From assembly GCA_963514005.1 (NCBI GenBank), contig OY740808.1:13144001-13208000 (forward strand): DNA of 64,000 nucleotides, in the 5' to 3' direction. Source of the DNA: Raja brachyura (taxonomy: Eukaryota). Positions 7,600-55,789 of the stretch are shown here, one piece after another (position 1 is the stretch's first letter; the number at the start of each line of letters is the position of its first letter). The notes beneath the pieces were generated by a model, which did not search any database, had not been told where the DNA came from, and saw only the letters and a program-made list of their open reading frames with translations. Position numbers and translations under genes: made by a program.

Positions 7600-9090
7600 A
7601 CTCCCTCATAAGGCTCACACCAGCCCCACACTGCCCACTTCTCTCTTCCCCTGCCTCACAATGCCTGCTTCTATGTCCTTCCCAAAATCCACAAACAGGG
7701 CTGCCCTGACAGACCCATTGTTCCTGCCTACTATGGACCTACCAAACTCATCTCCAAATACTTTGATTCCACCCTATCTCCCCCAACCCCTTTGTTCAGT
7801 CCATTCTGACTTACAGCTAAGACACCTCACTCGCCTTTCAACTCTTCAATAACTTACTGTTTCCTAGCCCCAGGATCTTATCCTAACCATGGATGTCCAG
7901 TCCTTTTACATTTCCATCTTCCACCAGGAAGATCTCCAGGTCCTCCAGTTCCTCCTAGAACAGAAGCCTAATCCATTTCCCTCCACTAACACTCTTCTCC
8001 ATCTGGTGGAACGTCCTCTCCCTCCACTCACTTTCTCCAAGTTTAAGGTGTAGCCAACAGGGACCAGACTTTCGACTGATGTCTACTACAAACCTACCAA
8101 CTCCCTCAGTTATCTGGACTGCACTTCCTCCCACCCTGCCTCTTACAAAGGCGCGATTCCCTACCCTCAAGTTGGTCTCCACCACACCTGCACGCAAAAT
8201 GAGCGTTCCATTGTAGGACATCTGAGATGTCCTCCTTCTGTAGTAAACATAGTTTTCCCCTGCTGCAATAGATGGACCCCTCGCCTACGTCTCTTTAGTG
8301 TCCTGTAGTTCTGCTTCCTGCCCCCAGGCGGGAAGTGACAGTTCCGCTGGTTCTCAACTTTCACCCCAGAGGCTTCCACATTCAACACATCATCCTCCAA
8401 CATTTCCATCACCTCCAATGTGATCCCAGCACCAGTCGCATCTTCCCATCCAACTTTCTGCCTTACACAGATTTCACTCCCTCTGCAACTCCTTGGTTGA
8501 CTTATGCCTTCCCACCTAAACCACCGCCTCCACAGGTACTTTCCCCTGCGTCTGCATGAGATGTAACACCTGTCTCTATACCTCCTTCCTCACCTCCATC
8601 CATGGACCCCTGTAGTCCAGATGAGGCAGAGGTTCACGTGCACCTCACCTACCCTCATTTACTGCATGCAGTACATCAGTGAAACCAAGTGTAGACTCAT
8701 GTCAAGACCTGCAGGATCTCCCCGGTTGCTATCCATTTTAACTCCTCCTCACATTCCCATACTTACCTTTCCATCTTGGGCCTCCTCCATTGCCAGAGTA
8801 AGGCCACATGCAAACTGGATGAACAACACCTCATATTCCACTTGGGTAGCTTACAACCCAATGGTAGATATAGAATACCTCCAGTGTTATGTAACTACAT
8901 AACCCTCCTCCTCTTCCCCCATATAAACCCCTCTCCCCTGTGCTCCACCTGGACTCGCACCTATTTCTCCCCTCCTCCCCTTCCACCTACATTCCTTTCT
9001 CCAGTGTCACAATTTGTAACTCTTCAATCCTTTTGTCTCACACCTATCTTTTCATCTCTGGACCTTGTCCAAACATTAGCCTATCTTTAG
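7600..9090 (+). mobile_element. Degenerate Neptune-like Penelope-like element (RT + GIY-YIG remnants)
   Basis: [35 protein letters not shown]...CNTC Cys linker, RQRFTCTS..LIYC, KLDEQHLIFHLGSLQPNG; frameshifted. Confidence 0.8.
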
Positions 9091-14064: not shown

Positions 14065-15084
14065 GTAAAAAAAAACTCTCACTAATAGAAGTATCATTTA
14101 ATTGTGGATTTCTTTATTGAAAATAGGTAACTTTGCTTGAGTGCAAGGGAGATCTCTGAGAATATTAAATAGATTCAGGAAGAGGCAATTCAAAAATGGC
14201 GTATAATTTTATAAGTGCTTCTGCAGTTTATCTTCCATGTGAAGGATGTGAATTGATTACACATTGTCCTATCCTTTAATTTATTGAGCATCATTGGGTT
14301 CTGATGGCCTCCTCTAAATGAGTTGGCTTATAAATAACACGAAAAAGATTTTGATTTTACCCCAACTGGATATTGATTTTTATTTAATGATAAAATACTT
14401 TCAGTTGATAGTGACTGTAAAATAATACAAAAGTGTGTTATCGTTTTAGTTATGTTATAAGTCTCTTAGCAAAGATTTGCAACGCTAATCTTAGCAACGC
14501 TAAAGGAATTTATTCTGAGGAATAAATCATCATCTAAATTGACAGCATTCTTTACTTAAATAGGGCATGAGAGTGCATAGAATGGTAATATAGTATGCCA
14601 GTAAGAAAGGATGGAGGATGTGGGTGAGGAAATTATGACCAGGAAAATGTGCTATGAGCAAAATGAAAAGACATATGGCAAAGTTCTGAAGGAGAACTCT
14701 TGCAGAATAAATTAAATTAAAGAGGCTCAAGAATCAGTTAGCAATAACTATTAGTGCAAGTGCTTCTTTGGTGCTGGCTTAGTATCGGTGGGCCGAAGGG
14801 CCCTTGTCTGTCTAGGACTCTAATGAATGCGTATCAAGATGGTGATGGTGAATGTTACATCACAGCTTGACTGGGCCGCACAATATCCTGTGAGGTCTAA
14901 TCATTTATTCAGAATAACTCAGTTACTGAACTTAAAAAAAATTCTCAATCAGTTGAACACTTCAATGAAGGAATATTTATAATAGGGTGAAGTTCATGCA
15001 ATCTTATTTCCTCTGAAGGTTTTCTGCATAAATGAAAAGGTTATCATTTTGGAGTTTCTCACACATGCCCTGTATATTTTCCAG

Positions 15085-15245
15085 ATGAGGAGAAAGCAAA
15101 GTCAGACCCAAATTACTATCTCAAGTCCACCAGTATGGTGCTGAGGGAAACGCTGACTGAACTGTACAGAGATTATAAAGGTGATGAAATGCTGGCATCT
15201 ATCATGAAAGAACCAGCAAAAAAGAAAGTGGATAAAATAAATGCG
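15085..15245 (+). CDS. PPIL2: PPIL2 exon (DEEKAKSDPNYYLKSTSMVLRETLTELYRDYKGDEMLASIMKEPAKKKVDKINA)
   Basis: ttttccag| acceptor, |gtaagt donor, 161 nt phase 1-0; matches human DEEKAKQDPSYYLK...KKKVDKLNA. Confidence 0.96.
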
Positions 15246-15729
15246 GTAAGTATCCATTTCTACCAGGCAATAACAGGCTAGAATCTCTTGACAATGGAAA
15301 CACATTGCTATATGGAACAAAAATAATAGTTGTATTCTTTAAGGAATCTAGGAAGATTGTCAAAGGGCTACCAATGAAGCAAGATTTTAAATGATAAATT
15401 ACCCCCCCATTTTCATGCAATTAAATGTAAACTAATTGGTATCTGAATGTCATATACATAGAAATGTTCTGCTGGTTCCCTTTTGAATATACAAAATTTA
15501 TGAATACTTAAAAGTCATTAGACAGAGAACTTGAACAGTTCGCGTCAAATCCACTGACAGCAAATCTACCTGACTGATAGCTGAACATTCTTCTGAGATT
15601 AAACTGCTGCTTCCAAATTGTGCCATGCAACATTTCCTTGATTATGTGAAGACAGGTTGTTGAGTAGTTCCCCCCCCCCCCCCCCCCCCAGCTTTTATTT
15701 TAGGATCACCAAGAAAATAATGCCGCAAA

Positions 15730-16165
15730 AGAACCTCCTCATCGGCTTGGCGATTGTTTCGCCGAACACCTCCGCTCGGTCTGCACTAACCAACCTGATC
15801 TCCCGGTGGCTCAGCACTTCAACTCCCCCTCCCATTCCGAATCCGACCTCTCTGACCTGGGCCTCCATGGCCAGACTGATGGAAGGGCCACCGGAAATTG
15901 GAGGAGCAGCACCTCATGTTCCGCTTGGGCAGTCTGCACCCTAGCGGCATAAACATTGAATTCACCAATTTCCGGTAGCCCTTGCTGTCTCCTCCCCTTC
16001 TCAGCTCTCCCTCAGCCCTCGGGCTCCTCCTCTTCTTTTTTCCTTTCTTCTCCCCCCCCCCCCCACCCATCCTACATCAGTCTGAAGAAGGGTTTCGGCC
16101 CGAAACGTTTCCTTCGCACCATAGATGCTGCTGCACCCGCTGAGTTTCTCCATCACTTTTGTCAA
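15730..16165 (+). mobile_element. PLE 3' end: GIY-YIG C-terminus plus terminal repeat with hammerhead core
   Basis: RLGDCFAEHLRSV...DLPVAQHFNSPSHSESDL...RKLEEQHLMFRLGSLHPSGINIEF; ctgaaga-agggtttcggccc-gaaacgtt at 16082-16109. Confidence 0.85.
16082..16109 (+). ncRNA. Minimal type I hammerhead ribozyme core (PLE-associated)
   Basis: CUGAAGA-A-[GGGU UUCG GCCC]-GAAA-CGUU; activity untested. Confidence 0.6.
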
Positions 16166-16757
16166 CCTCCTCATACCTACCTCTTGACCATGACCCCACA
16201 GTCAAACACCAGGCTATTGTCTCCCAGACAGTCACTGATCAGATCGCTTCCAGTGACCTCCCCTTATAGTTCCCCAACTGTGCACCACCTGTATTTATCT
16301 CTTTTCCAAAATAGACAATCCTGACTGCTCTGTTAGACTCGTTGTTTCTGCTTGGTCCACCTCACCAAAAATCCTCTCCAAATACCTTGATTATATTTGT
16401 CCTCCCGGTCATTTGTCCTGACTTGTAGGGGAGCATATCCTCCGTTTGTTCCATATTCATGGGTCATTACATAAAATAATTAGATCATTTTATTGAGGTT
16501 ACACGGGTAAAACTTCAGCGATGCAAATAATATCAGCAATACTAGAAATGCACACACCAGGTCTGTCAACAGGTGAAATAAAACCTCTATTAAAGCTATT
16601 CACAACATGAGTCAGCATTGGGATTCTTTTTGCTTTCACACAATCATTGTATTAAGCCAGCCTTTATGGTTAGTTATTCTTTGTGTCAACTGCAGCATCT
16701 GGTATTGTATAGAGAATACTGGATGGGTCGCAATGAGATGGCAGAAATCATATATCA

Positions 16758-17834
16758 TTGCAGTATAATGTGGATAAATGTGAGGTTGCAGTATAATGTG
16801 GATAAATGTGAGGTTATCCACTTTGGTGGCAAAAATAGGAAAACCGACTACTATCTAAATGGTGGCCGATTAGGAAAAGGGGAGATGCAGCGCGACCTGG
16901 GTGTCATGGTACACCAGTCATTGAAAGTAGGCATGCAGGTACAGCAGGCAGTGAAGAAAGCCAATGGTATGTTAGCTTTCATAGCAAAAGGATTTGAGTA
17001 TAGGAGCAGGGAGGTTCTACTTCAGTTGTATAGGGTCTTGGTGAGGCCACACCTGGAGTATTGCGTACAGTTCTGGTCTCCAAATCTGAGGAAGGACATT
17101 ATTGCCATAGAGGGAGTGCAGCGAAGGTTCACCAGACTGATTCCTGGGATGTCAGGACTGTCTTATGAACAAAGACTGCATAGACTCGGTTTATATTCTC
17201 TAGAATTTAGGAGATTGAGAGGGGATCTTATAGAAACTTACAAGATTCTTAAGGGTTACACAAAAAGCTGGAGAAACTCAGCGGGTGCAGCAGCATCTAA
17301 GGAGTGAAGGAGATAGGCGACGTTTCGGGTCGAGACCCTTCTTCAGACCCGACCCGAAACGTCGCCTATCTCCTTCACTCCTTAGATGCTGCTGCACCCG
17401 CTGAGTTTCTCCAGCTTTTTGTGTAACCCTCGATTCTTCAGCATCTGCAGTTCCTTCTTTAACACAAGATTCTTAAGGGGTTGGACAGGCTAGATGCAGG
17501 AAGATTGTTCCCGATGTTGGGGAGGTCCAGGACAAGGGGTCACAGCTTAAGGATAAGGGGGAAATCCTTTAGTACCGAGATGAGAAAGAATTTTTTCACA
17601 CAGAGAGTGGTGGGTCTCTGGAACTCTCTGGCACAGAGGGTAGTTGAGGCCAGTTCATTGAATATATTTAAGAGGGAGTTAGATGTGGCCCTTGTGGCTA
17701 AGGGGATCAGAGGGTATGGAGAGAAGGCAGGTACGGGATACTGAGTTGGATGATCAGCCATGATCATATTGAATGGCGGTGCAGGCTCGAAGGGCCGAAT
17801 GGCCTACTCCTGCACCTAATTTCTATGTTTCTAT
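16758..17834 (+). mobile_element. Young 5'-truncated CR1 LINE, subfamily B, interrupted by a hairpin PLE mini-element
   Basis: ORF2 C-terminus YNVDKCEVIHFG...RDLGVMVHQSLK...; resumes at 17464 after the insertion; TTTCTATG tail. Confidence 0.95.
17252..17463 (+). mobile_element. Palindromic non-autonomous PLE terminal-repeat insertion with hammerhead core
   Basis: Perfect 81-bp inverted arms 17252-17332/17350-17430; 33-nt tail 17431-17463; TSD acaagattcttaaggg 17240-17255/17464-17479; HHR core on - strand 17319-17346. Confidence 0.9.
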
Positions 17835-17935
17835 ATGATTAATTTCATTCTGATTTAATAGTTTTCCCATCACATTTTCATACCTTGCTTTTATGATTAT
17901 TGTAATGTACTTCAGTAGTAATACATTGTCTAAGA

Positions 17936-18011
17936 TAGACACAAAAAGTTGGAGTAACAGCATCTCTGGAGAGGAATGGGTGACGTTTCGGGTCGAGACC
18001 CTTCTTCAGAC
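17936..18011 (-). mobile_element. Solo PLE terminal-repeat fragment with intact hammerhead core (17982-18009)
   Basis: rc = ggt-ctgaaga-agggtctcgaccc-gaaacgtc-acc...; homologous to the 17252 arms. Confidence 0.75.
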
Positions 18012-21000
18012 CTAAGCAGTTAATATCAACTGAAATAGGTGGTTAGATACAAGGATAGCTGGGGGGCAGTACTAAGGCAAGTGAAGGCAACTTCATGTGG
18101 ACCAGTGGGTGTAGAAGACAACCAATAAACATTATCAGAAGGGCAGCTAGGAATGGGCATTAAATGTCAACCTACCCTACCATGTCCAGATCTCAACAAG
18201 AATTAATTAAAAAAGTCAGGTAGAACTATTAGCTGAAATAAATTAAAGAAATCGTGAAAGAAAAATCACATAAACGTGACCTTTTCTAGGGAGATTTCCA
18301 GTGAATGCAAATAGAAAAAGGACAGTAAAAGTGGATAACCAATTGAAGATGTGGGTTACGTGTGAGATTAAAGAATCTGTGTTGTAATTAAATAAATAAA
18401 TCTACTGGTATGACTTTCACCACAAATCAAATACTGTGCGTTGATATATTTGTGTTTACTTCAAAAATTTCAAGGCATTTGTATCAATAAAATCCTCCCA
18501 TGCACCATATCACATTTAACAATGGCACAAGGGAAATCGGTCCAAGCAGAGAGAATTAATCTTTCATTCAACCTGTAAAACCTGCACCTGCCCCCACCCA
18601 AAACTCAAGTCCCCCTCCTCTGTCTAATGTATTAAAAAATTTCCACCATGAGTGCTTCATAAATGTTCTGCCATATCGTCCTCTACCCAATCAGCCCTGT
18701 CCAATATTCTCACATCTTGTGGGAATCTGGAACGCTGCAGTTGGAGATAAATTGTAATTATGGCAGATTCCATAATAAATATATGGCAAAGTGTTCATGA
18801 TGGAAATCTTAAAGAATAAGATAATATATGGCTTTACAGTTGGGATAAATATCATCCTTGTGGTCCTATTCTTTTCGGACTAAAAGCGTTTGCATCACTG
18901 TAAAACTATATTTGATCTGGACTCTCTTCCTGTGTGCAAAGTGATTGGATATGTTATTTTATTTATTCAAGTTTCCAAAAAAAGACTCGTGAATTTATTG
19001 TGCTATAATTGGATGCTGCCACCAGTAATATCTTTGTAATGCATGGTTTGCACTAGTGTCAGTTCCCGTATAGCTGCCCAAACCCGAGTTCTGCAGTCTA
19101 CATAGGAGAGAAACTTTGTTCTAATTCTAGATTTCTGCTTTCCAATTTGTTTGGACATTTAACCACAATTAATATAAAATTAAACCATTATCTAAGAGGG
19201 GCATCCTTTAAAATGGGGGCAGAATTGCTTTTTATATTGGAGCATTTATTTCCTTACTCCTAAGCTCATTTTGCTTAAATACTAGATATATGCCTTTCAC
19301 TGACAATTTTTTAATGCATTGGGACAACTGAGATGGGTTTTCAAGATACAAGTGAGAAATTGCAGACTTTAATCACGATTAGAGTTGAGAAAAACCATTA
19401 ACAGAAAAAGTTGTACATTGAAAGCCTGGAGCCAATTGAAAAATTTATGTGCAGTGTGTGAGAATAGAGGAATACTGTTCAGCGTTATAATTAAGTAAAT
19501 AATAAGGCCATTTATTGCAGTGTGTCATACATCACAAATTAAGTACTGTCCCAATGCATTAAAAAGTCTGTTTTCTACGAAATTTTGCAACCATTTAAAA
19601 CAACATAATCACCTCATGCACATTTTAAGACTGACCAAAAGAAAGCCTAGGGCAAGGAAATTAATCTTTCATTTGCTAACTTCCAACGATTCATGTTCTT
19701 TTCCTTTAAGTACATACAGTATAAAGTGTTGCATTTATACGTACATCATGATATGTTACATTTTATCTTCCTCTATACTTATTTGTGAAAAAAATCAGCC
19801 CCGCTTCCAATGACAGTGGAAAATGAGGTTACAAGACCATTCAGATTATTTCTGATTTGGTTCTTAAATTGCTGCTTTTTGAAAATATTTTCACACTCTA
19901 TCGTGTATGCATGTAAAGTGTGAAGAATGAGTGCTCAGATGGCATATATCAGCTGTCCAGAGTACAGCTTTTTATGAAGAAGAGACAATTCTGGTACCTT
20001 CCCACCCAAAGTCTCGAAATCAGCTAAAATAGACACCGAAAGCTGGCGTAACAGCGGGTCAGGCAGCATCTCTGGAGATAAGCCTGTGCCTCCATTCTCT
20101 GAATCAGCATTTTGGTTAACTATGAATAAGCTAATACTGATCAGTAAAACTGTTAATCCGGCACGTTCAAGATTTTGGTGTCACACTGGCAGATTTTCCA
20201 CACTTTTAGATGTTATTCTAGTTAATGCTCCTAAACTCTATAATTTTTTGCTGGACCATACATGGTAGTATAACAACATTTTCAGCAAACCCCCTAAGTT
20301 TAAAGGGAACATGGGAGATGGAGCCAGGTGGATGTCAAGTTAACAAGTGACCTTCTATTAATGGTGCAGTCTTTGGAACTGTGGCGTCAGCCTAAACACG
20401 GGCCACTTATGCTTGAACCCTCGTCAGGAGATACGAGGGCGGGCACGTGACGTCATGGGCTAGAGGGAGTGTCCTGGTACACCAAATTACACAAACATTA
20501 CAAATGTATTCAAGGGGACTGGATCAACATGGGACACAGAAGTGAATAGAGGGTTAGGCTGATTTTTTTTCAGATGATGATAGATGAGACGAAGCTCAAT
20601 GGACTTTAGTCAAATTGCAGGTTTGAATGCTGTATATCTTACGTCTTAGAATTTAGAACATAGAATAGTACAGTACAGGAATGGGCCCTTCGACCCACAA
20701 TGTTTGTGCTGAACCTAATGCCAAGTTAAACTGAGCTCATCTGCGTAGTAACCTTCATTAACCACTATTCTCTGCACTTCCATGTGCAAATCTAAAAGCT
20801 CTTACATGCCACTATTGTATCTGCTTTCACCACCACTCCAGGCAATGATGCCCACACTACGCTCTGTGTTTAAAAAAAATGCCCCAAATATCTCCATTAA
20901 ACTTTCCCCCTTTCACCTTATAGTTATGCCCTCTAGTGTTGCACATTTCCACCCTGGGGAAAACGATTCTGATTGTCTACCCTTTCCATCCTTCTCATAG

Positions 21001-31600: not shown

Positions 31601-32666
31601 AAATGGGATTTAACTGATTTTCCTTCAGCCTGCAACTGCAGCTGTCTTCATTGTTCCACAGCATTGTTTATGTCACCGAGATATCTTATTAAGGTTTGAG
31701 TTTTGATGGTTCTCATTTAATGAGCCTCGTGAACAAATATTGATTGGTCATGGGAGTTTTTGCTATCTTCTGTTGTAACAGAGCTTCACCTCCACCCTGT
31801 AGAATCAGGGAAGCCATTCAGACCCATAAATTCTAAAAGCTGGCAGGATTATGAAGCTGATCCACAGGAGACCAATTATACTGTTGTTTTAATTCATTTA
31901 CAATTTGGCTATTAACATTAAACCTTCATTCACAGAAGAGGATAATGTTACTGAGTTCCTCCCTTTCCTTGACGCATCTTTCACAGAAATTGGAAGGTGG
32001 TGCATTCCAGACATTCTGTGAAAGGAAGCACATTATTGCCACTGTTCTGTCTTGTCTCGTTGAGCAAAACAATTGTTTCACATCCACTGATTAAAACTTT
32101 AATTTTCTTGAAAATAGGCGCCTAAAGAAATAGTTTTGCATCAATCAGGAACAATTGGAACCTTGAAATTAACTTGACGGAATGCAAGCACATTTTTTGT
32201 AATATTTCTTAATTCAACCTTTCAAGCCCAATATCATTCTTGTGCATATGTGCTCGACATCCAAGGATGTTGTTTAGTTTATTTTGGAGGTATAACATTG
32301 AAACGTGCCCTTCAGCCCTTGACTCCACACTGACCATCAACCACCCTTCAACAATAGTTCCATGTTATCTTACTTTCCTCTCCTTTCCTTACACATTTGA
32401 GGCAACTTTACAGAGCCCAATTAACCTGAAAACCTTTGGGATATGGGAGTGTAATATGTTACACAAGGGAGATTCAGCATTTTTGAGGTGCAGTATGCAA
32501 AACAAATTAAAAAAATCAACAGTTAGAGGCCAAGCAAAGCACTGTTCGACCCGAGCATAAGCTTCTCAGGTTCTTCCTTCCAACATTCATGTTCACATTT
32601 TTGAATATATTTTATACATGTACACTTTTTTCAGTGCTTTGATCACAGTAAGTACCTAATCACTGT

Positions 32667-33605
32667 TTAAGAAAGAACAGCAGATGCTGGAAAAATCGAA
32701 GGTGGACAAAAATGCTGGAGAAACTCAGTGGGTGAGGCAACATCTATGGAGCGAAGGAATAGGCAACATTTTGGGTTGAGACCCTTCTTCAGACTGATGT
32801 TGAGGGGGTGGGGGTGGGAAAAAGAAAGGAAGAGATGGAGACAGTAGGCTGTGGGAGATGCGAAGGGGAGGGGAAGGAGGGAGAAAGCAAGGACTAACTG
32901 AAACTGGAGAAGTCAATGTTCATACTGCCTGGGTGTAAATTACCCAAGCAAAATATGAGGCGCTGCTCCTCCAATTTGCGGTGGGACTCACTGTGGCCAT
33001 GGAGGAGGCCCAGGACAGAAAGGTCGGATTCGGAATGGGAAGGGGAGTTGAAGTGCTGAGCCACCGGGAGATCAGGTTGGTTAATACGAACTGAGCTGAG
33101 GTGTTGGGCGAAGTGATTGCCAAGCCTGCGCACCGATGTAGAGCAATTGACACCTGGAACAGCGGATGCAATAGATGAGGCTGGAGGAGGTGCAGGTGAA
33201 CCTCTGCCTCACCTGGAAAGACTGCTTGGGTCCTTGGATGGAGTCGAGGGGGGAGGTAAAGTGACAAATGTTAGCATTTCCTGCAATTGCAAGGGAAAGT
33301 ACCAGGGGAAGGGGTGGTTTGGGTGGGAAGGGATGAATTGACCAGGGAGTTACGGAGGCAGCAGTTTCTGCAGAAGGCTGACGGGAGGAGATTTAGCCAG
33401 TGGTGGGATCCCGTTGGAAATGGCAAAAATGTCAAAGGATTATATTTTGTATGTGATGGCTGGTAGGGTGGAAGGTGAGGACAAGGGGGACTTGTTACGA
33501 GTGGGGGGATAGGGAGTGAGAGCGGAGCTACGGGATATAGAGGAGACCCTGGTGAGAGCCTCATCTATAGTCGAAGAGGGGAACCCCCGTCCCCTAAAGA
33601 ATGAC
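32667..33605 (-). mobile_element. 5'-truncated Neptune-like PLE (Cys linker, GIY-YIG, terminal repeat with tail)
   Basis: GTFPCNCRKC..., RRLGNHFAQHL...DLPVAQHFNSPSHSESDLSVLGL...RKLEEQRLIF.LG.LHP; terminal repeat 32667-32795 with decayed HHR core. Confidence 0.88.
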
Positions 33606-33939
33606 TTAAAATCATTTCACTGTGTAGCTTCTGGTCTCATGCTATTAAGAAAATAATTTGATTTTTTGGATCAAAGCAGATGTTCTCATAGTTCCTTTAT
33701 TTAATGCTATTTTGCTCAATAGATATCCCTTTGTAATTACTTTCTTTAATCCAAACGACATTGAAACAGATGGCGAAAGGAAGCATAAACAAATTAGAAA
33801 CATTGACTGGGATGCATCATATTTCACTGCCTTGACTTCCTGTTCTGAGAAATATCAGTGTTAGCTACAGTACGTGCTCCCTGAGTTAAAAGAGTATTTT
33901 TCATTTAGAGATTTATCCTGGATTGCCACTATAGAGTGC

Positions 33940-34859: not shown

Positions 34860-35335
34860 CAGGGAACCTGAATTTCAACCCCACCGCCAGTCACATATTC
34901 CCATCCCCTCTCCTTTCTGCCTTCAGCAGAGACTCTCTACGATTTCTTGTATCACTCATCCCTTCCGACCCAAATCAATTCCTCCACCCTCCCCCCCCAG
35001 TACTTTCCCCAGCAACCTCAGGAAATGTAAAACCTGTCCCTATACCTCCTTCCTCATGTCCATCCAGGTATGACAGAAGTTCATGTAAGCCTCTTCTAAC
35101 CTTATCTGCTGCATTCAGTATTCCCATTGTGGTTTCCGGTACATCGGCAAGACGAAGTGTAGACTAGGACACCGTATCAATGAACATTAACTCTGCCGGC
35201 CAAGGTCTGTTGGATCTCCCAGTTGCTAACCATTTTAACTACTCTTCCATTTCCCATACTGACCTTTCAGTCCTGGGGCTCCTCCATTTCCAGAATGAGG
35301 TCGCACTGGTGGAGCAGCACTTCATGTTCCGGTAA
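34860..35335 (+). mobile_element. Neptune-like PLE GIY-YIG fragment; its 3' part appears to continue at ~37490-37860
   Basis: FPSNLRKCKTCPYT, YIGKTKCRLG, DLPVANHFNYSSISHTDLSVLGL; decayed terminal repeat at ~37765-37850. Confidence 0.75.
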
Positions 35336-35346
35336 CTAATGTTTAG

Positions 35347-37478
35347 GTAACTAAGTAAGTAAGTAAGTTTATTGGCCAAGTATTCACATACAAGGAATTT
35401 GCCTTGGTGCTCCGCCCACAAGTAACAACATGACGTACAGTGACAGTTACGAATGACTCAGAAAACACTAAACATTAATAATAATAAAATATTAATGTTA
35501 AAACACCATTGATCAAGCATGTGAACCAACAAAATACCAGATCAAAGGGAGGCTACAGATTTTTGGCTGTTGAGTAGAGCAACTACTCGTGGATAAAAAC
35601 TGTTTTTATGTCTGGCTGTGGCAGCTTTGACAATCCGCAGTCGCCTTCCAGAGGGAAGTGATTCAAAGAGTTTGTGGCCAGGGTGAGAGGGGTCAGAGAT
35701 GATCTTGCCCGCTCGCTTCCTGGCCCTTGCAGTGTACAGTTCATCAGTGGAGGGAAGGTTGCTGCTAATAACCTTCTCTGCTGATCGGACGATTCACTAC
35801 AGCATCCAGGTGTCGTGCTTGGTGGCTGAGCCAAACCAGACCATGATGGAGAAGGTGGGAAAAGACTCTACGATGGCCGTGTAGAGTTGGACCATCATTG
35901 CCTGTGGCAGATTGTGCATCCTCAGCTGCCGTAGGAAGTACATCCTATGTTGTGCCTTTTTGACTGTGGAGTCGATGGTAGCCCCCCACTTAAGGTAGCA
36001 ATGTTACAAAATTTTGAGATTTAAAAAATCAAGTCTGCAATTTATCCCATCAGATAAAGCATAAAAAGAAGTTTAATTTGACACCTAATTTACTTTCATA
36101 TCTTCAGTATTAAGAAAGTTATGGCCATTTTCATACTCGGAAATTAGCAGTTTGTTCCCCATTGCCTTTCAATTGACTTAACTCAACAGCTGTGATCTGG
36201 AAAAGTCAAAAGCCCATAACTTTCTTAAAAATTAAGAGAACTCAATGAAATTTTCAGTTATTATAGATTGAAGCATTCTGAAACAAATATGAAACAATCT
36301 TACTTGGATGACCTGAAATTAAAGCATATAATTAGTTAGTTATCTAATTGTAGCTAATTACAAAATTCAATGAGTAGATCTAAACATCTATCCATTTCTT
36401 AAGAAAAGATAAACTTTTTTTAAATTGCCTAAGTGTCCAAATAACATTCACATAATAATCCACAATATAACATAATTTTTAAATCTCATTTTTATGAATT
36501 TCTGGGCCAAATGGAAGGAATTTAGTGTTCAATGCCTGTAAATTAATGGCCATTTAAATCAACTAGTGAGTGGGTTTTAGTGGAATGCGGTGGATTGGAA
36601 CGTTGCGGTTAGCGGTGAAGTCGGGGGGGAAAATACTGTTTGTTCATAGATTTTTTGGGACCCCATTTCGCAACATAAAAATATTATTAAAGCCTCCTGA
36701 AAAAACAACTTTTAATATAAAAATAAACTATTTACCTTTTTTTCTCCCCTACGGAAAATCCTTCCGGTTGTTGGTTCTCACGGCTTTTGAAGGTGATTTT
36801 TAAATTACTCTAGTTAACAAATAATTTAGAGTAATTTAAAAATACCTTCATGAGTGTAAAGTCGGAACGATTTTTCTTCCCCGACGAAATCGCCCGACAT
36901 TGATCGATTTTCCAGGTCTGTTGAAAATCGGCACTTTAAGCCCGCCCCCCTCTGAAAGGCGCCAAAGTCGCGCACACGGGGAGCGGCAGAACTGCAGCGC
37001 TGCTCAAGGTAAGTTTTGCAACATACCTACTTAAGGTCCTTGGAGATGATGGTTCCCAGGAACTTAAAAGACTCCACAGATGTGATTGTGGTGTTGTTGA
37101 TGGTGAGTGGGGTGAGGGGAGGGGGAGCTCTCCTAAAGTCTACAATCAATTCCACTGTCTTAAGAGCATTGAGCTCTAGGTTGTTGCTACAGCACCAAGA
37201 CGCCAGCTGCGACACTTCCTGTCTAGGCAGATTCCTCCCCATCCTGGATCAGTCCAATCAGGGTTGTGTCGTCCACAAACTTGAGAAGCTTGACAGAGGT
37301 GTCTGTGGAGGTGCAGCCGTTGGTGTAGAGAGAGTAGAGGATAGGAGAGAGTATGCAGCCTTGTGGTGCTCCTATGCTGAGCGTTTGCGGGTCCGAGATG
37401 TGCTTTCCCAGCCTCACATGCTGCTTCCTGTCTGTCAGGAAGTTGGTGATCCACTGACAGAGGGGCTCAGGCACAGTC
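35347..37478 (-). mobile_element. 5'-truncated Rex1/Babar-type LINE (RT C-terminus), interrupted by the 1.03-kb TIR element
   Basis: LCQWITNFLTDRKQHVRLG...GAPQGCILSPILYSLYT...KFVDDTT...WCCSNNLELNALKTVELIVDFRR...FKFLG; aataaa followed by (CTTA)n tail. Confidence 0.85.
35996..37029. mobile_element. Non-autonomous DNA transposon (~1034 bp), copy 1, superfamily unassigned
   Basis: Imperfect 16-bp TIR TAGCAATGTTACAAAA / TTTTGCAACATACCTA; 7-bp TSD cttaagg (35989-35995, 37030-37036); second copy at 54516-55547. Confidence 0.88.
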
Positions 37479-40903: not shown

Positions 40904-41565
40904 GCTCAGAATGTTATAAGTGTTTGAACTTCTCTCCACTGGATCTGTGATTTATCAGTCTTTGAGTATGTAAGAGATAAAGATTGCAGGACTTCTAAAT
41001 ACTACGTTCAGGCGAAATATGGAGCAGATGTTTCTTACTAGTCTTATTGAGATATCTTAATCATACATTATTGGATGGATACAGTGCCCTCCATAATGTT
41101 TGGGCCAAAGACCCATCATTTATTTATTCGCCTCTGTTCTCCACAATTTGGAATTTGTAATAGAAAAAAATCACATGTGGTTAAAGTGCACATTGTTAGA
41201 TTTTATTTGGTCTCACCATGTAGAAATTACAAGTGTGTTTATACATGCCCCCCCCCCCCCATTTCAGGCCACCATAGTGTTTGGGACACATGGCTTCACA
41301 GCTGTTTGTAACTGTTCAGGTGTGTATAATTGCCTCATTCATGCAGGTATAAGAGAGCTCTCAGCACCTAGTCTGTCCCCCAGTCTTTCCATCACCTTTG
41401 GAAACCTTTATTGCTGTTTATCAACATGAGGACCAAAGTTGTGCCAATGAAAGTCAAATAAACCATTTTGAGACTGAGAAACAAGAATAAAAATGTTAGA
41501 GACATCAGCCAAACCTTAGGCTTACCACAAATCAACTGTTTGGAACATTATTAAGAAGAAAGAGC

Positions 41566-43211
41566 GGCTTGCAAAAGTTTTCATACCCCTTGAACTTTTC
41601 CACATTTTGTCACGTTACAACCACAAACGTAAATGTATTTAATTGGGATTTTATGTGATAGACCAACACAAAGTGGAGCATAATTGTGAAGTGGAAGGAA
41701 AATCATACATGGTTTTCAAATTTTTTTACAAATAAAAAACTGAAAAGTGTGGCGTGCAAAATTATTCAGCCCCCTTTACTCTGATACCCCTAAATAAAAT
41801 CCAGTGCAACCAATTGCCTTCAGAAGTCATCTAATTAGTAAATAGAGTCCACTTGTGTGTAATCTAATCTCAGTATAAGTACAGCTGTTCTGTGAAGGCC
41901 TCAGAGGTTTGTTAGAGAACATTAGTGAACAAACAGCATCATGAAGCCCAAGGAACACACCAGACAGGTCAGGGATAAAATTGTGGATAAGTTTAAAGCA
42001 GGGTTAGGTTATTAAAAAAATCCCAAGCTTTGAACATATCATGGAGCACTGTTCAATCCATCATCCAAAAATGGAAAGAGTATGGCACAACTGCAAACCT
42101 ACCAAGACATGGCCGTCCACCTAAACTGACAGGCCGGGCAAGGAGAGCATTGATCAGAGAAGCAGCCAAGAGGCCCATGGTAACTCTGGAGGAGCTGCAG
42201 AGATCCACAGCTCAGGTGGGAGAATCTGCCCACAGGACAACTATTAGTCATGCACTCCACAAATCAGGCCTTTATGGAAGAGTGGCAAGAAGAAAGCCAT
42301 TGTTGAAACAAAGCCATAAGAAGTCCCGTTTGGAGTTTGCCACAAGCCATGTGGGGGACACAGCAAACATGTGGAGGAAGGTGCTCTGGTCTGATGAAAA
42401 ATTGAAGTTTTTGGCCTAATTGCAAAACGCTATGTGTGGCGGAAAACTAACACTGCACATCACCCAGAACACACCATCCCCACTGTGAAACATGGTGGTG
42501 GCAGCATCATGCTGTGGGGATGCTTTTCTTCAGCAGGGACAGGGAAGCTGGTCAGAGTTGATGGGAAAATGGATGGAGCCAAATACAGGGAAATCTTGTT
42601 AAAGAAGGAACTGCAGATGCTGGAGAATCGAGGGTTACACAAAAAGCTGGAGAAACTCAGCGGGTGCAGCAGCATCTAAGGAGCGAAGGAGATAGGCGAC
42701 GTTTCGGGTCGAGACCCTTCAGTCTGAAGAAGGGTCTCGACCCGAAACGTCGCCTATCTCCTTCGCTCCTTAGATGCTGCTGCACCCGCTGAGTTTCTCC
42801 AGCTTTTTGTGTAACCCTACAGGGAAATCTTGCTGTTCACAGATGCTCTCCATCCAATCTGACTGAGCTTGAGCTATTTTGCAGAGAAGAATGGGCAAAC
42901 ATTTCAGTCTCTAGATGTGCAAAGCTGGTAGAGACATACCCCAAAAGACTTGCAGCTGTAATTGCAGCGAAAGGTGGTTCTACAAAGTATTGAGTCAGGG
43001 GGGCTGAATACTTTTGCACGCCACACTTTTCAGTTTTTTATTTGTAATAAAATTTGGAAACCATGTATCATTTTCCTTCCACTTCACAATTATGCACCAC
43101 TTTGTGTTGGTCTATCACATAAAATCCCAATAAAATCCATTTATGTTTGTGGTTGTAACGTGACAAAATGTGGAAAAGTTCAAAGGGTATGAATATTTTT
43201 GCAAGCCACTG
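41566..43211 (+). mobile_element. Inner Tc1 transposon, Passport-like, with ~210-bp IR/DR-type TIRs; transposase pseudogene 41941-42993
   Basis: MKPKEHTRQVRDK...KWKEYGTTANLPRHGRPPKL...KVLWSDE...[17 protein letters not shown]...YPKRLAAVIAAKGGSTKY*; right end GCAAGCCACTG|TA, left end lacks TACAGT; stop codon, frameshift and catalytic-region deletion. Confidence 0.92.
42599..42818 (-). mobile_element. Second palindromic PLE terminal-repeat insertion with hammerhead core
   Basis: Perfect 90-bp arms 42631-42720/42729-42818; tail 42598-42630; TSD tacagggaaatcttg 42584-42598/42818-42832; HHR core on + strand 42724-42751. Confidence 0.9.
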
Positions 43212-45619
43212 TAAGCTAAAGATGGCTGCAATGCATTCCTGGCAGAGCATCACCAGGGAAGACACCCAGCAACTGATGATGTCCATGAACCACAGACTTC
43301 AAGCAGCCATTGCAGGCAACAAAATAATAATGTAACTATTTTCATTTACATGACATTGCAGTGTCCCAAATATTATGGTGCCCTGAAATGGGGGGGATTA
43401 TGTATAAAAATGGCCTTTATTAAAATCTGACGTGCACTTTAACCACATGTTTTTTTTCTATTACAAATCTCAAATTGTGGAGCACAGGGGCAAATAAATA
43501 AATGATGGGTCTTCGTCCCAAACATTATGGAGGGCACTGTAAGTTATAATTTCAAGGACAATGCGGAATTCAAATATTGTGAACAGCGAGAAGGGCAATA
43601 ATAGAATTCAGGAGGCACAAACTCAAGCAGATGAAATATGGAGGGATGCTCTGCCGAACAAGATGGAGAAGGGATGGTATGAATTAAATGCGATAGTTTC
43701 AAAGTCTGAAAATTAAGCCGCAGAAGAAATGCTTGGCTTTGTAAGTAGAAATAAACAATAGTAGCGCAATTCTGGAAATCACACATCGGAACTTTGTCAA
43801 GGCCTTATAATGGTGTAGAAGAAAAATAAAAGTCTGATATCGTGGATTAGTGTTATTGTTTATGGATGACTTAAATTACGGGAAGAATCTGAAGAAACTC
43901 TGTTCTTTAAATAGAGCACTTTAAGGAAGATTTGATTGGGATATTTAAAATATTGAGGCATTTTGCTACAGTGAGTGAGAATGTAGTTGCAGTGGTAAAA
44001 TTGTTGACATTAGAAAACAAAGACAAATGGCAATGATCCGAAAAATAAAATCTCAGGAGAAACGATGTGGAATCTTAAATGCACTGACTGAATATTAGGT
44101 TAATCAAGTCCAATATCAGTGATCAAAATTTAATTGGAAAAAATACTTAAATTAAGAAAATGAAGTTATGGAGAAAAAGAATGACTGTAGGACTAATTAA
44201 ATTTATCAAAAGACAGGTATGCTGAACCAAATGGCTCGTAGCTATTCCATATAATTGTTTGATGATGGTAAAAATCACGTTAAAATGGTCTTTAGTAGCT
44301 TTGAAACCGTGAAGTCATGTATAAAATTATTTTTTTATTTTCTGAAATGTAATCCAATGGTGACTTGACAATGAAAAGTGTGGTCTCCATTATTAATCAA
44401 TAATCATATTATATGAAACGTAGTTTTTTCTGAAAATTACACAGATACAAATAAATTAGTGAAGCAGTCATACTCGAGCGTGATTGCCTGATAATAGATT
44501 AAAGATTTAATATCTCTGAATAGCAATAATTCTGTTAGGACTACCTGTTTTCCATATAATTCTTGTAACAGCTTTTATATTTTTCCATATTAGTAACTGC
44601 TTTGTTTCTTGGCTCTGCTTTTATTTAAGTGGAATTTTCCAAAGCATTGACTTCCATGTGCAAATGATATTGCGTGCTGACTAAGTCACAGCAACAATCT
44701 CTTCCCATCTGTGCCAAAGCATGTTTCTTTCTGTTTTGTGTTACTGAAAGAGATTCAGTCAGGCACGTAGTGCATTAAAAAAGTTCAACACATTAAAACA
44801 CCTGGCAAAGTGAAGAATAATATTCCATTGCTGATGTACGATTTCCATTCCTCTTAAGTCAAAGTGACTAAAATCACAGGGAATCTGAATTGGAATGAAT
44901 TTTCAAGTTTTTTGATGACTCATTACTTTCATAATTACCACACATTGTTGGCACTCCTTTTAGTTAGCGTATAGAAATGAAGCCAAAGCATTCACATCAA
45001 CTGAACTTCCACTGGGGAAAAAGACGAGAAAGCTAAACAGATTAGGGCTATTTATTTATTCCCAACTTCTCAAGAATTTAGATACTTCAGCATCTTGCAT
45101 TAGTATTTGCATAGCTATTAATATCTCATGACAAATTTTTATTCCTCAATAGCTATTAATAGCATGATACATTTTTATTCCTGAATTTAAAAAAATAATA
45201 ATAAATTTTTAGATGTTGGCCTGGAAGAAGTCAACGCTTGTTCACTGAATTTGGAGAATTTTGTAGAGATAACATTGGTATTTTTACAATGCTTTTTGGT
45301 GCCTGCTACAGGAAGTCTGGGTCTCAGTAGCAAAAAGCGGACAGGGATCAATGCCGCCCAGTTGACCATATGTTCTCTACAAGGTCTGATCTTGTATTGG
45401 GTCTTGTACAAAGATAGATTACTTCCTAACAGAAAATTATTTCTACATGTCATCTCTTGCTCCATGATGCATTGCCAAAATGTTTCTACAATTATACTCC
45501 AGGTTTATTCAAACTTTCACCTGTCCAACATACTACTAGTACAAATAACATCCTACAGCTGCATGATAAGATGAACACAAGAAAACATAGTGTATCTTTT
45601 TTCTGTTTAACTTTCATAG

Positions 45620-45709: not shown

Positions 45710-47299
45710 GTGAGTTTATTGCTTAATACTTTTGAAATGTGACTTGCACAATAGTACTCACTGATTGACACCAATTCAAAATCAGTATTACAAGATTAAT
45801 TTTGTTGGATTTGCTAATGTCAGTAAGAGAAAAGGACAGATCATATTTTACAACCTGGAAGAGTTTTAAAAATATATTTTCTCAGCGTATCCAAAAGCTA
45901 AGCATCTGCGGTCCTTTGTAGTACAGAATCTGATAATTCTCCGAATGACCAAATTCCTTGTGACTAAGTGTTCCTTATCCCAAGGGTATGTTCCTTGTTC
46001 TGGATATTTAGTGCTGTCTAGCCTTAATTCCTTAATTGAGTGAACACAGTTCCATGGTATAAAACTGCTTGCAATTTGACAATCTTTCTCACTTAATCAC
46101 TGGATCATAGGCACTGAAATTGGTAACGCATGACAAACGTGCTTTTGGAAAGACTTTCACCTTAAATTGTCCAATTTGAGCAAACTGATGCCAAAGCAAA
46201 TGGAAAATTATCGGCATCTAACATGTTGTATTTGCATTGAGCGTGTTGCATTGTGATACTGGCCATTAAATCTGTAAATTTGCCAATGTCAGCATCACTT
46301 ATGCCCAGTTAATAGTCAGTGTTGGTAAACGGAGCTCCACATTACATCGAATGTGACAATTGTGTGGGGAGATCTCCTTGAGGACAGTAGTGACTGTCAT
46401 TGCTGTACTGCTTAACCAGATGTCCAGGCCATTATTTTGTACACCGCAAAAATGTACTCATTTTAAAACTAGCAGTCGAACTGTAAATAAAATATATTTA
46501 ATCCTGCAACAATCGTAGGTTCCTGACATTTTCCCTTATTGCTGATAGGCATGTGATGACTGCAAAGCCCAGGCAGAAATCAAGTTTTTACCTTTCTGGA
46601 TTTTTTTTAAATTATAGACATTGTTATGCAGAGTTAGAGGAGCAAATAGGTGAGACCATTTCAGACAAATGGCAGAACTAAAGAATTAGTGAAGAAATCA
46701 CATGGTCTGGCTGGATCAATTGAATCTCAGCAAAGACTTCATTCTAATATAACAGTCATTCAATTTAATGCCCATATTTGATATTTTTAATCCAATTTCT
46801 CAATTTTATCCATTGCTTATATTTAGCCATTCAGTTACTCTGGGGGAGGGACATTTGTTTCTTTCCTCTGCAGTATAGACTGCTTGGTCATCTTAGTCTC
46901 CTTGTTCCCTTTGTTTGAATCTCTCCTCCCTAAAAACATCTGAGTGCCATTTTCTTCCTTAGACATGGATTAGTATATAATTAATCATTACAAAACAGTA
47001 CTTAAGATTGTTTTTATATCAACCTTAAGACATTTGACTGAATACCATTCCGGGTACAACTTCGACTGCTGTTACACATCAAATCCAACTACTGTGATAT
47101 GTACGAAATAAAAAAGTTGTTAGTATTAAAATTAAAGCAAAAATGTTATGCTGCACAATTTCAATTACTAGATCCTAAATATTAGTAGTAATAGATCTCA
47201 CTAGTTGGATTACGATATTTTACAGTTGGTAACTTGAATGTGCATCCAGGTAATGATCTTCAGTTTTAGATGATTAATAAAGTAGTGCTATTTGCTAAA

Positions 47300-49900
47300 A
47301 TTATACAAAATGAATGACTAGGAAATGCAATCAATCCAATTAAACCTAGTCCATAAAGCTGTAATATTCGTCTGTCTCCCTAGGAGAGAGAAAAAATAAT
47401 ACCTTTTGACAATTTATGAAAATACCCATGGCATTTCAATCTAATCCTTTTGGTCAATCTAACAGGCCCTTAACAAAGTTCAGTGTCACATGATACAGAT
47501 GTTAAGTCTGTAGTAAATAATCTTTTGGGATCATCCCAATCGGATGATCAGGATAGCACTTCGTTGGCCAACAAGAGTTTAAAACTAAGGAGCTGGAGCA
47601 ATTAAACATCTTATCATAATTTCTTGGTACAATTTCCAACAGGGTTATGTTCCTGAAAACTGTTTGTAACCAAAATAGTATCCAAGTGGAAATGTGGCTG
47701 CCCGGCACTATATTTAAATAAAGGTATGGGCAAACCAAGGGGAAACTTGCAGTTAAATCAGGGTTTTTAACACAACCATTCAGCTATTGCCATGAACCAA
47801 GCTCTCGTCAGGCAGAAGATGCCTGCTGCCCTGCAGTTGCTGGCAAATTCATCCCAAACCCTTGTTCGTATTACGGGCTGTCCAGATGTCAGGTGTTTGT
47901 CACCTGGGGTATACCTGCACTTTAATCTTAAATGCAGCTTTTGTATCACCAGTTTGAATATCCTGTTAATAAGGAATTAAGTATAGATGAAGAAGTTATA
48001 GTTAAAGGTCCATTGTTACCACCAGACTCTTCAGGGTGATGTTTTAACTTTGAAGTCAACCTATTTGTCCATTTTTTTTCTCTATTTAAAATCCTATCTA
48101 ATATCTCTTCCAACTGATCAATTACTAACCACCCTCTTTTGCAAAGACAACTAGAGGGTACTTAATCAGCATCTCCAATTTCTATCCTGCCTCCATGCAA
48201 ATTTGCCTCAACAACTGTACAACTTTTTAAAATAATGGAATGGTCCCTTGTTATTTTGTTTTACCCATTTGATCGATCCCTTATTAACTGATTTATAGAC
48301 CAGTTAATAATTTGATATTTTCAGTTTGGATTTTTCTTTGTCCCTTCTCATTGATACATTTAGCCTGATTATTTTATGATTAATATCACCCAATTGCCCC
48401 CCAATGCAACATCTGCCTATTTCCTCCAGAGAGAGCATCAAACATTCTTCCTTCAGTATTGGCAAGAAATGTTTCGAGACTAGGACTTATTTATTCCAAT
48501 TCCAGCTCCTCTTCTCTGGAGTCCATGTTAGATTAATTGAGAGCCCCACTAATTCTATAGTTCTGCCATTTATCTGAAATGGCCTCACCTATTTGCTTTA
48601 CTAACTCTGCATAACTATGTCTATATTTTTTTTTTAATTACCAGAAAGGTAAAAACTTGATTTCTGCCTGGGCTTTGAAATCTCTACTATTACTATTTAT
48701 ATCATATCTACGATGTCTCTCAGCTCTCCTGGGTTTTAGATTCCTTGCATATCCCTGCTGAATACCTTGCAACATCTGCATATCTTAACTTAACAATGCC
48801 AGGTGAATGATATCTAACTACCTGTCAGTAGCCAGTGGTATACCTGTGGTAGTGTTAATAGTTTTCACACTACTACCTCCTAAATAGTCACAGTAGACAA
48901 ACTAAAATTTGAAGTGCTTGTTCCTTATTTGTCTTACATAGCTGCATAATGCCTGCGTACATCACATCAATTGGTAATCTTTTACAGAGACAAGTGAGTT
49001 AACATAACATTTCTCATCTTCGTGCCTAGCTTTTCCGTCAGTATCCAATTGAAATTTGGATATCTATATAATTGAATATGCATATTTTTGACAGCTTTTA
49101 TCGTATTTTCCCTCAGCACTTGTCTCTCTTTTGAAAATTGGCCCTAACAGTCTGACAGGTTTAAAGACTGAATTGTAAGATTATGTCTCAATTTGGTTGT
49201 GGTTTCCTGGATCACTTGCTCATCTCGATGTCCATCATCAGGTCAAGACACAAAAACTGGAAATAGCGCTAAAGAGTTTAAACCATCCAAGTGATGCACT
49301 TTATTTTTTATTTTCAATGGCCTTCCTAATCAATATATTCTGAATCCTTAAGCTTTTGAATAGCTTCATCATACTGTTTTGAAGCTTCATTCATTTTGTT
49401 ATTGATGAATTCTAGCAACTCTTCTGGTACAATAATTGAGCTTGTATTTCCTTGAAGCCAGGTCCAAGCCAGGCACAATCCTTATTTAACAAAATCTAAG
49501 GATATCAGGCTCTTCCTCTAATTTAAATAAATTACTTTGTCCTATTTATTTGATCTAAATTCCCAGCTCATGTGAACCTTTTTGGTTCATGTGCATCCTT
49601 GCAACTGTTCCATAAAATTGTTGACTTCACATTTGCATGCTCTACAAATTCCCACATCCAAATCATGATCAATTGTAATGTACGGCACTATTCTCAATAG
49701 AGACCCCTACTCCTGCCCCAGATAGATCTTCTGTTTATTATGACTACTGCCCTGGACACGTCATTCATTTTTCCATTCCCACACCCATCTGTCTTATATT
49801 CACACATATCCCAATTTACTTAAATGTTCTCTACATTGTTTTATGGACTTATTGGGACGTTATAGCTTCATTTCCAGCTATCGCAAAAGTAGGGAAATGG
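47300..49900 (-). mobile_element. Long, very old CR1-type LINE remnants
   Basis: Scattered CR1-like motifs on the minus strand (GPDDGHR..., NLSDC.G, IGY...); heavily decayed; bounds approximate. Confidence 0.4.
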
Positions 49901-50921: not shown

Positions 50922-51378
50922 GTGTAAATATGAACTCCAGATGCTCGTTTAAACCAAAGATAGTCACAAAAAGCTGGAGTAACTCAGTGGGACAGGCAGC
51001 ATCCCTGCAAAGAAGCAATGGGTGACGTTTCGTGTTGAGACCCTTCTTCAGTCTAGTTAGGGATAAGGGAAACGAGAGATATAGACGGTGATGTGAAGAG
51101 GTAATGAACAATGAATGAAAGATATGCAAAAATGTAACGATGATAAAGAAAACAAGCCACAGTAAGCTGGTTTAGGGCAAAAATGAGAAGCTAGTGCGAC
51201 TTGGGTGGGGGAGGGATAGAGAGAGAGGGAATGCTGGGGCTACCAGCATTGACAGAAATCAATACTCGTACCACTGACCTGTAAACTGCCCAAGCGAAAT
51301 ATGAGATGCTGTTCCTCCAATTTCCATTTAACCTCACTCTGACAATGGAGGAGACCGAGGACAGAAAGGTATGTGTAG
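50922..51378 (-). mobile_element. Short 5'-truncated PLE (GIY-YIG C-terminus + terminal repeat with tail)
   Basis: SVLGLLHCQSEVKWKLEEQHLIFRLGSLQ; HHR-like core 51024-51051; 16-bp TSD acaatgaatagttgct at 50906-50921 and 51379-51394. Confidence 0.85.
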
Positions 51379-55547: not shown

Positions 55548-55789
55548 CATTCTAGTCCTAATGGGGTATGAGTTGAATGCTCACTTCATTGACCCTGCTC
55601 TTCTTTGTTTCCTTGTGTTACCCAAGAATAAAATAGAACACATCTCATTAACTTTATCTATCCTTGTCATAGTCCTCAATGGTTCTTTACAAAATCAGAG
55701 TTACATACTAATCATATTTCAACGTTTCCACTGCTGTCATCACCAATGCTTTCCATTTGCAATATTTATGAGCTGATTACAGTTACTAG

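Follow-up and report, generated by a model that had tools for sequence, protein, structure and literature searches.

An ORF-less 212-bp hairpin in the genome of Raja brachyura, possibly the shortest form of an ordinary Penelope-like insertion

The stretch of Raja brachyura DNA analyzed here (64,000 nt of contig OY740808.1; hereafter, the window, whose own coordinates we use) carries at 17252-17463 a 212-bp hairpin devoid of coding sequence, i.e., with no open reading frame (ORF) between its repeats. This hairpin, called copy 1 below, is a real, recent, and well-formed insertion. On balance, we lean toward viewing it as the shortest form of an ordinary Penelope-like element (PLE) insertion, made anew by a Neptune-type machinery through priming on two strands and a head-to-head join. 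Most likely, it was dead on arrival. It also bears a hammerhead motif, and we argue that this motif is a passenger, predicted to be inert and buried in the hairpin.

Copy 1 is made of two 81-nt arms (17252-17332 and 17350-17430), which are 100% complementary and separated by a 17-nt spacer, and of a 33-nt tail (17431-17463) present at one end only. It is flanked by a direct repeat of 16 bp (17240-17255 and 17464-17479, plus strand), i.e., a target site duplication (TSD), and the last 4 bases of the left repeat are also the first 4 of the arm. Copy 1 can thus be described either as 208 bp with a 16-bp TSD or as 212 bp with a 12-bp TSD. The target site is found once in the paralogous CR1 copies at 6863 and 2166, which align to the locus with a single 224-nt gap and so represent the empty site. 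Among 1500 random pairs of positions lying 212 bp apart, none had a repeat of at least 16 bp; the sole repeat of 15 bp was the TSD of the second hairpin described below, and the next best reached 10. Both the overlapping TSD and the perfect 81-bp arms had been proposed by a sequence-only reading of the window, and both are borne out by these results. Indeed, only two perfect palindromes with arms longer than 17 bp (loop of at most 30) exist in the window, and they are the two hairpins. The host of copy 1 is the 3' end of a young 5'-truncated LINE (16720-17835, plus strand), which we take to be CR1-like, following the sequence-only reading; its frame is open on either side of the insert and its closest paralogue (24670) is 97% identical. 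A Pfam search of the CR1 fragments of the window returned no family. We considered a MITE, i.e., a derivative of a DNA transposon, and rejected it, as the TSD is 12-16 bp long and not short and fixed, and the tail lies outside the inverted repeat.

The arms correspond to the terminal repeat (pLTR) of a PLE. We number this repeat from the A (+1) of a TCAGTC motif, initiator-like, located 5' of the ribozyme core. By this numbering, copy 1 opens with an inverted pLTR copy of 97 nt without tail (17252-17348, minus strand), extending from +2 of the motif to the arm end. It is followed by a junction base that the parent repeat does not template (17349, plus strand; a G that, in PLE sense, immediately precedes the inverted copy), which may be cap-derived or repair-derived; by a direct pLTR copy (17350-17430, plus strand), 5'-truncated at +18 and without intact ribozyme core since CUGANGA is absent; and by the PLE tail on the plus strand. 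Identity of the arm to three repeats of the window reaches 86.7% (32706-32794), 82.2% (16080-16162), and 79.5% (50965-51051), and all three sit 3' of sequence matching PLE endonuclease C-termini by tblastn. This agrees with the earlier proposal that the arm is the terminal repeat that follows endonuclease coding sequence in the PLE copies at 16082, 32667, and 50922 (around 80-87% identity). The closest tailed relative of copy 1 in the window (82%) is a 5'-truncated and frameshifted PLE at 32665-33616 (minus strand), with a linker Zn-finger, a GIY-YIG endonuclease, a pLTR, and a tail. The element at 15731-16168 (plus strand), also 5'-truncated, retains the endonuclease C-terminus and a pLTR that stops at the arm end, without tail. 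The third one (50922-51378, minus strand) is 5'-truncated, has a tail and a perfect 16-bp TSD (50906 / 51379), and displays no inversion.

A C-terminal GIY-YIG with a CCHH motif downstream of the reverse transcriptase (RT) is present in the translations, RT and then endonuclease being found at 7654-8865, in a PLE copy that is an older relative and not the direct parent of the hairpins. The CX2-5CxxC linker is intact at 8520-8612 and in protein P0001, and is split by a frameshift near 33272. Since this linker is absent in Penelope and Poseidon (PMC8557442), Neptune-type appears to be the best label for the parent, on the strength of the linker and GIY-YIG motifs, with Nematis as a further candidate. 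The named protein relatives give weak GIY-YIG Pfam matches that fall below the cut-off. A 78-aa piece translated from 32897-33130 matches two proteins among 108 candidates, both from Leucoraja erinacea (72-74% identity), and has 622 relatives at E ≤ 0.001 in a larger protein library. As these two best relatives come from Leucoraja erinacea, the assignment of the host to cartilaginous fishes, made earlier from the letters, is upheld. A Pfam search of 14 fragments of the window matched only the Tc1 fragment and found no family for the PLE, CR1, and exon fragments; PLE identity thus relies on protein relatives, tblastn, and motifs. Two scans of prokaryotic genomes for stray host DNA with the motif gave 0 loci. 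Several side observations concern the PLE population. At least 12 pLTR-related insertions of several subfamilies are present in the 64 kb (about 1 per 5 kb), which is a very high PLE density. Older broken copies are found at 7654-8865 (RT upstream of linker and endonuclease) and at 35014-35302. Directly after the PLE at 15731-16168, the segment 16168-16430 resembles, by eye, a decayed internal PLE coding piece, which would mean either that the PLE inserted into an older copy or that a tandem has suffered a deletion. Finally, proteins P0001, P0002, P0009, and P0074 resemble gene models fused to a PLE endonuclease fragment and are probably annotation chimeras.

The second hairpin (copy 2; 42598-42818, minus strand) is 221 nt long, with 90-bp arms and an 8-nt loop, and lies inside a Tc1-type transposase gene. 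Its TSD is of 13-15 bp (42584-42598 / 42818-42832 at the full 15 bp). Copies 1 and 2 have identical outer ends and differing central junctions (two copies out of two). In copy 1, the inverted arm starts at +2, with one extra base, and the direct arm at +18, which leaves a loop of 17 nt; in copy 2, the two starts are +1 and +9, and the loop has 8 nt. Outside the junction, the two copies differ at 3 of 211 positions, and two of these three differences are a single mirrored change, carried by both arms of copy 1 (17305/17377) and by neither arm of copy 2. A derived variant shared in this way indicates that the arms of copy 1 come from one source, a result equally compatible with fold-back copying or gene conversion. 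The sequence-only reading had described copy 1 as a coding-free, recently inserted unit mobilized by a Neptune-type PLE. Its absence of ORF, its youth, and its PLE repeat, tail, and TSD stand; movement of the hairpin as a unit is not demonstrated by the two copies, whose junctions differ. Likewise, the tail is indeed 33 nt long and occurs once per unit, but it is not unique: it belongs to the PLE itself and recurs at 32665, at 50922, and at about 52860-52896 (3 of the 10 other terminal-repeat copies).

The surroundings of the hairpins deserve a few further observations. Copy 2 belongs to a three-level nest (41080-43541), in which it sits in a Tc1-type element with 219-nt inverted repeats (41563-43210), itself in another inverted-repeat element with 94-nt repeats. 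The host Tc1 transposase has an internal deletion that begins exactly at the end of the right TSD (42818-42840), and this deletion may have arisen with the insertion or may be older. Both hairpin target sites share CAAGATT beside the tail end (17464-17472 and 42590-42598), a site found 20 times in the window, and beyond these 7 nt the two TSDs are unrelated. An ATT lies no more than 10 nt from the tail end in 4 of the 5 tailed inserts, a post hoc count in AT-rich DNA. It echoes the ATT preference described for the Anolis enzyme (PMC11167929).

The copies that do not form hairpins end in the same places. Of the 10 other pLTR-related copies, 3 extend to the tail end, 5 stop at the arm end or close to it, and 2 fall short of it, the ends of the older copies being judged by eye; two of the tail-ending copies have TSDs, of 16 and 14 bp. 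A TSD search for the copies 32665, 16082, 20030, 28600, and 37770 gave nothing convincing. At the other extremity, 7 of the 14 pLTR segments continue upstream, 4 begin at +1/+2 of TCAGTC, and 3 begin further in. Five of the copies that continue upstream were inspected, and four of them keep the motif intact. The segments starting at +1/+2 are both inverted arms, the solo pLTR unit at 17932-18012 (minus strand), and, more weakly, the solo at 59364-59453, whose 9-bp AT-rich TSD contains 1 mismatch. The solo at 17932 runs from +2 to the arm end, as a single-armed counterpart of the hairpins, and keeps an intact core (18009-17982). An extra G precedes +2 in both copy 1 and this solo, where it could be part of a 5-bp TSD.

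We also observed an 8-bp helix between pLTR body and tail in all five tailed copies (17384-17391 with 17439-17446 in copy 1, pairable in the parent RNA; equivalents at 42598, 32665, 50922, and 52800). In these copies 39 of 40 cells are paired, with 3 one-sided G-U changes and no double change, so that the pair counts show conservation and no covariation beyond shuffles. This helix encloses the arm end and may be an RT-initiation stem-loop, which the long hairpin would disrupt. In both hairpins, an open frame of 26 codons runs from an ATG at 17386 in the arm through the tail (17386-17463 in copy 1). It is possibly the N-terminus of the parent ORF; the peptide matched none of 150 proteins and is too short for a large protein search.

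The observed order, i.e., inverted pLTR piece, direct pLTR piece, and tail, assembled head-to-head within a 12-16-bp TSD, is that of a PLE insertion. Indeed, published PLE insertions frequently begin with a copy that is both inverted and 5'-truncated, have a tail of 30-40 bp at one extremity, and are flanked by a TSD whose length varies (PMC8557442, PMC8969392). In the present case, the sequence is the pLTR of an element encoding RT and GIY-YIG, an inverted and 5'-truncated copy comes first, a single extremity bears a tail of that class, and TSD length is variable (12-16 bp for copy 1, 13-15 bp for copy 2, and 16 bp at 50922). PLE insertions are mostly head-to-head, with junction palindromes that have been read as self-priming (PMC3846280). 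A purified Anolis element nicks and extends both target strands, uses two internal RNA starts that bound the tail, and works on uncleaved RNA (PMC11167929). The outer ends of the hairpins are those of the non-hairpin copies, and they thus fit two RT start sites bounding the tail, together with extension of both strands.

The sequence of events that we favor would be as follows. Transcription of Penelope is known to start inside the pLTR (PMC2377424, PMC8557442); here, the presumed RNA start is the TCAGTC motif, which resembles an initiator and immediately precedes the hammerhead core. The RT would use two start sites, about 98 and 131 nt from the RNA 5' end: cDNA synthesis would be primed from one nick at the tail end and from the nick in the other strand at the arm end, the template being either a single RNA or two sister RNAs of one locus. 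One cDNA would run off the RNA 5' end (+1/+2), the other would stop earlier (+18 in copy 1, +9 in copy 2), and both would be joined head-to-head. The solos 17932-18012 and, weakly, 59364-59453 could be the one-strand version of this process. Cap copying can leave an extra G, as found in LINE-1 work. The extra G before +2 could come from copying of the cap. This RNA start is drawn from a 6-nt motif and four ends, of which those of copies 1 and 2 are perhaps not independent, and the two-start-site biochemistry comes from a Poseidon-clade element, the parent being here Neptune-type. More broadly, such hairpins could preserve the trace of two-strand priming on PLE mRNA that was capped and not cleaved, and so reveal how PLEs come by their inverted repeats and tails, a generalization to which we grant slightly less than an even chance.

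As for the hammerhead motif, the minus strand reads CUGAAGA-A-GGGU-CUCG-ACCC-GAAA-CGUC from 17346 to 17319, with C3 at 17346, C17 at 17319, and a predicted cut at 17319/17318. This minimal type I core has a 4-bp helix II and a palindromic ACGU in place of helix III, as the sequence-only reading had recognized. Comparison with PMC4209133 places it in the class described there: it has CUGANGA-N, the G10.1-C11.1 pair, helix II, GAAA, a palindromic 15.2-16.2, and UH. At no more than 1 mismatch, the core pattern matches 6 times in the window against 0.07 expected, all 6 being copies of one repeat. Helix I has 4 bp (2 of them G-U) in copy 1, 2 bp in copy 2, and 3 bp in the solo; in the parent it has only 2 bp, and the junction of copy 1 happens to lengthen it to 4 bp. 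Over 9 copies, 48 of 54 cells of the hammerhead pairs are paired, with no covariation in excess of shuffles. A covariance-model check had been suggested from the letters. No hammerhead was found by Rfam among 10 matches in the window, nor among 26 matches in 17290-17375, which were sub-threshold generic hairpins; this blank is neutral, since a motif without helix III is expected to escape such models. A covariance model built on the 9 window copies recovered those 9 and the damaged core of copy 2, and then nothing above 17 bits, a circular result that is not evidence.

Several features argue that the ribozyme plays no part here. Each hairpin unit has one intact core, located on the strand opposite the tail. 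In computed nearest-neighbour energies, which ignore tertiary contacts and protein chaperoning, the ribozyme fold lies above the hairpin by 38 kcal/mol (copy 1) and 51 kcal/mol (copy 2), and by 30-51 kcal/mol in nascent transcripts; on the core strand, the complementary arm is transcribed first. Two isolated cores are predicted to prefer a non-ribozyme dimer (-29.8 versus -16.1 kcal/mol). Moreover, the cut site, after +31, is internal to both arms and the insert ends elsewhere; as both arms extend past it, the copied RNA template must have been uncut. The proposal of the sequence-only reading that copy 1 is a retrozyme-like unit is hence not sustained. In such a cycle, hammerhead cleavage would free a unit RNA, to be circularized and reverse-transcribed. 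Its appeal lies in a core that is sequence-intact and matches the minimal PLE class (PMC4209133), in the 4-bp helix I of copy 1, and in the second intact core (18009) found 663 nt away on the same minus strand; in addition, retrozymes have been reported as PLE derivatives, one chondrichthyan included (10.64898/2026.07.22.740005). Nevertheless, we observed no tandem repeat and no head-to-tail array, and the buried fold, the rival dimer, the single core, and ends away from the cut site all speak against it. Published activities point the same way: monomers of minimal PLE hammerheads show no activity and their dimers are weak (PMC4209133), and out of nine dimers from Xenopus, eight did not cleave (10.64898/2026.07.22.740005). 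We thus regard a retrozyme-type cycle as extremely improbable.

The more serious competitor is also a de novo PLE insertion, in which the second arm would arise by fold-back: the 3' end of the first cDNA, or of an antisense RNA, would prime its own copying, and endonuclease or repair would resolve the far end at the arm end. Self-priming is the published reading of PLE junction palindromes (PMC3846280), and it predicts perfectly identical arms, private variant included. Where the junction lies, the parent possesses a short palindrome, TCAG-T-CTGA; apart from 3 nt missing from a GAA repeat, copy 2 folds back perfectly there, and the junction of copy 1 can be read as a short GACCC slippage. Fold-back alone, however, leaves unexplained why the second arm should stop precisely at the arm end, a position where 5 of the 10 non-inverted copies also have their 3' end, and the solo at 17932 begins at the same base as the inverted arm of copy 1, yet shows no inversion. 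We hold fold-back to be unlikely, while taking it seriously. It is less probable still that the hairpin and its tail form a non-autonomous element, whose tail-strand transcript the PLE protein would re-insert in full, in trans and with no need for the ribozyme. Two near-identical young copies at most 25 kb apart with identical outer ends would suit such propagation, and so would the tail remaining outside the long hairpin; pLTRs suffice in cis for mobilization in trans (PMC3846280), and non-autonomous PLE derivatives exist (PMC8557442). With two hairpins, 3 differences in 211 positions would also fit a young family copied as a unit, and the two differing junctions are too few against later deletions, as long palindromes can lose central bases after insertion. 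On the other hand, the long hairpin abolishes the arm-tail helix conserved in the tailed copies (39/40 cells), the RT would have to displace a perfect duplex of 81-90 bp and halt every time at the very start of the arm, and the putative initiator lies in the loop, in opposite orientation. Finally, an assembly or library fold-back artefact, or an inverted duplication at the DNA level of a solo pLTR after insertion, seems very improbable to us. Complex PLE inverted structures do trouble assemblies (PMC8557442), but each hairpin has its own TSD, beyond which the host sequence resumes in register, the tail is on only one arm, and two separate loci share identical outer ends.

In LINE-1 twin priming, both nicked strands prime cDNA synthesis, which leads to a 5' inversion within the TSD. 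The two L1 cDNAs copy non-overlapping parts of the RNA, whereas here the same 81-90 nt are copied, hence the palindrome. Among PLEs, the closest insertions are those described in PMC8557442 and for Pen2/Pen2a of Adineta vaga (PMC3846280), with a similar inverted 5'-truncated copy, tail, and TSD. Compared with them, the present insert has repeats with no ORF in between and measures 212 bp in all, so that its arms make up one uninterrupted hairpin of 81 bp; this ORF-less form is seen twice in 64 kb. The Poseidon element PAc of Anolis carolinensis is alike by its two internal starts bounding the tail and its extension of both target strands, by a hammerhead located about 70-100 nt upstream that is not required, and by its ATT-containing targets (PMC11167929). 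It differs by its clade, the linker being here Neptune-type, and by an ORF that starts in stem II, while stem II has here no ATG; the sections of the PAc work consulted contain no description of two cDNAs being joined into a hairpin (PMC11167929).

The motif has close relatives among the minimal hammerheads of metazoan PLEs, which share the CUGANGA core, the extra base before G10.1, the G10.1-C11.1 pair, a palindromic 15.1-16.1, and a short helix I (PMC4209133). The Acropora Neptune hammerhead is alike in its 4-bp helix II, 4-nt loop, and CG-UC layout, and Schistosoma has opposite-strand pairs of minimal hammerheads 100-700 bp apart (PMC4209133). What sets the present unit apart is that truncation has destroyed one of its two cores, while a perfect hairpin locks up the other. 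Animal non-LTR retrozymes (PMC7229834; 10.64898/2026.07.22.740005) are similarly short, non-coding, and pLTR-related, with a type I hammerhead motif and TSDs longer than 4 bp. They are however organized in head-to-tail tandems with one ribozyme per unit and yield linear and circular monomers, whereas we found one inverted pair, the ends of which bear no relation to the cut site. The literature that we covered, which is incomplete and does not extend to Repbase or Dfam, contains neither ORF-less pLTR hairpins in cartilaginous fishes nor twin priming in PLEs; their absence from print is thus not established.

As regards the genomic context, plus-strand exons of a cyclophilin-type gene, presumably PPIL2, are recognized by motif at about 21605, 45683, and 50677 and by eye at 15060-15246, with splice signals; a Pfam search of one of these exons gave no match. 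Given the exons that surround them, both hairpins are probably intronic in one plus-strand gene. The pre-mRNA would carry the tail strand of copy 1, which has no core, and the core strand of copy 2, in which the core is predicted to be buried. Other repeats of the window include a dispersed repeat of about 1 kb, in two copies that are 84-95% identical (35998-37030 and 54518-55548), and an inverted-repeat element with 83-nt arms (46609-48629).

What we describe is thus a known insertion structure in an extreme short form, whose value is that of a compact record of PLE integration: about 210 bp hold both outer ends and the junction. The mechanism producing the inverted repeats and tails of PLEs is still called an open question (PMC8557442, PMC11167929). 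If such ORF-less hairpins were common genome-wide, a tally of their junctions would tell two-strand priming apart from fold-back and would also locate the RNA 5' end, with no need for bench work. It is rather doubtful, in our opinion, that skates and their relatives carry abundant ORF-less PLE hairpins of about 210 bp as a non-autonomous family of their own (a retro-MITE), with the tail as RT entry and the intronic dsRNA of 80-90 bp silencing the parent. The present case also serves as a warning: a short non-coding repeat is not a retrozyme simply because its hammerhead motif is intact. The effect of these hairpins on their host, if any, is predicted to pass through the 81-90-bp intronic dsRNA in the pre-mRNA, and not through self-cleavage.
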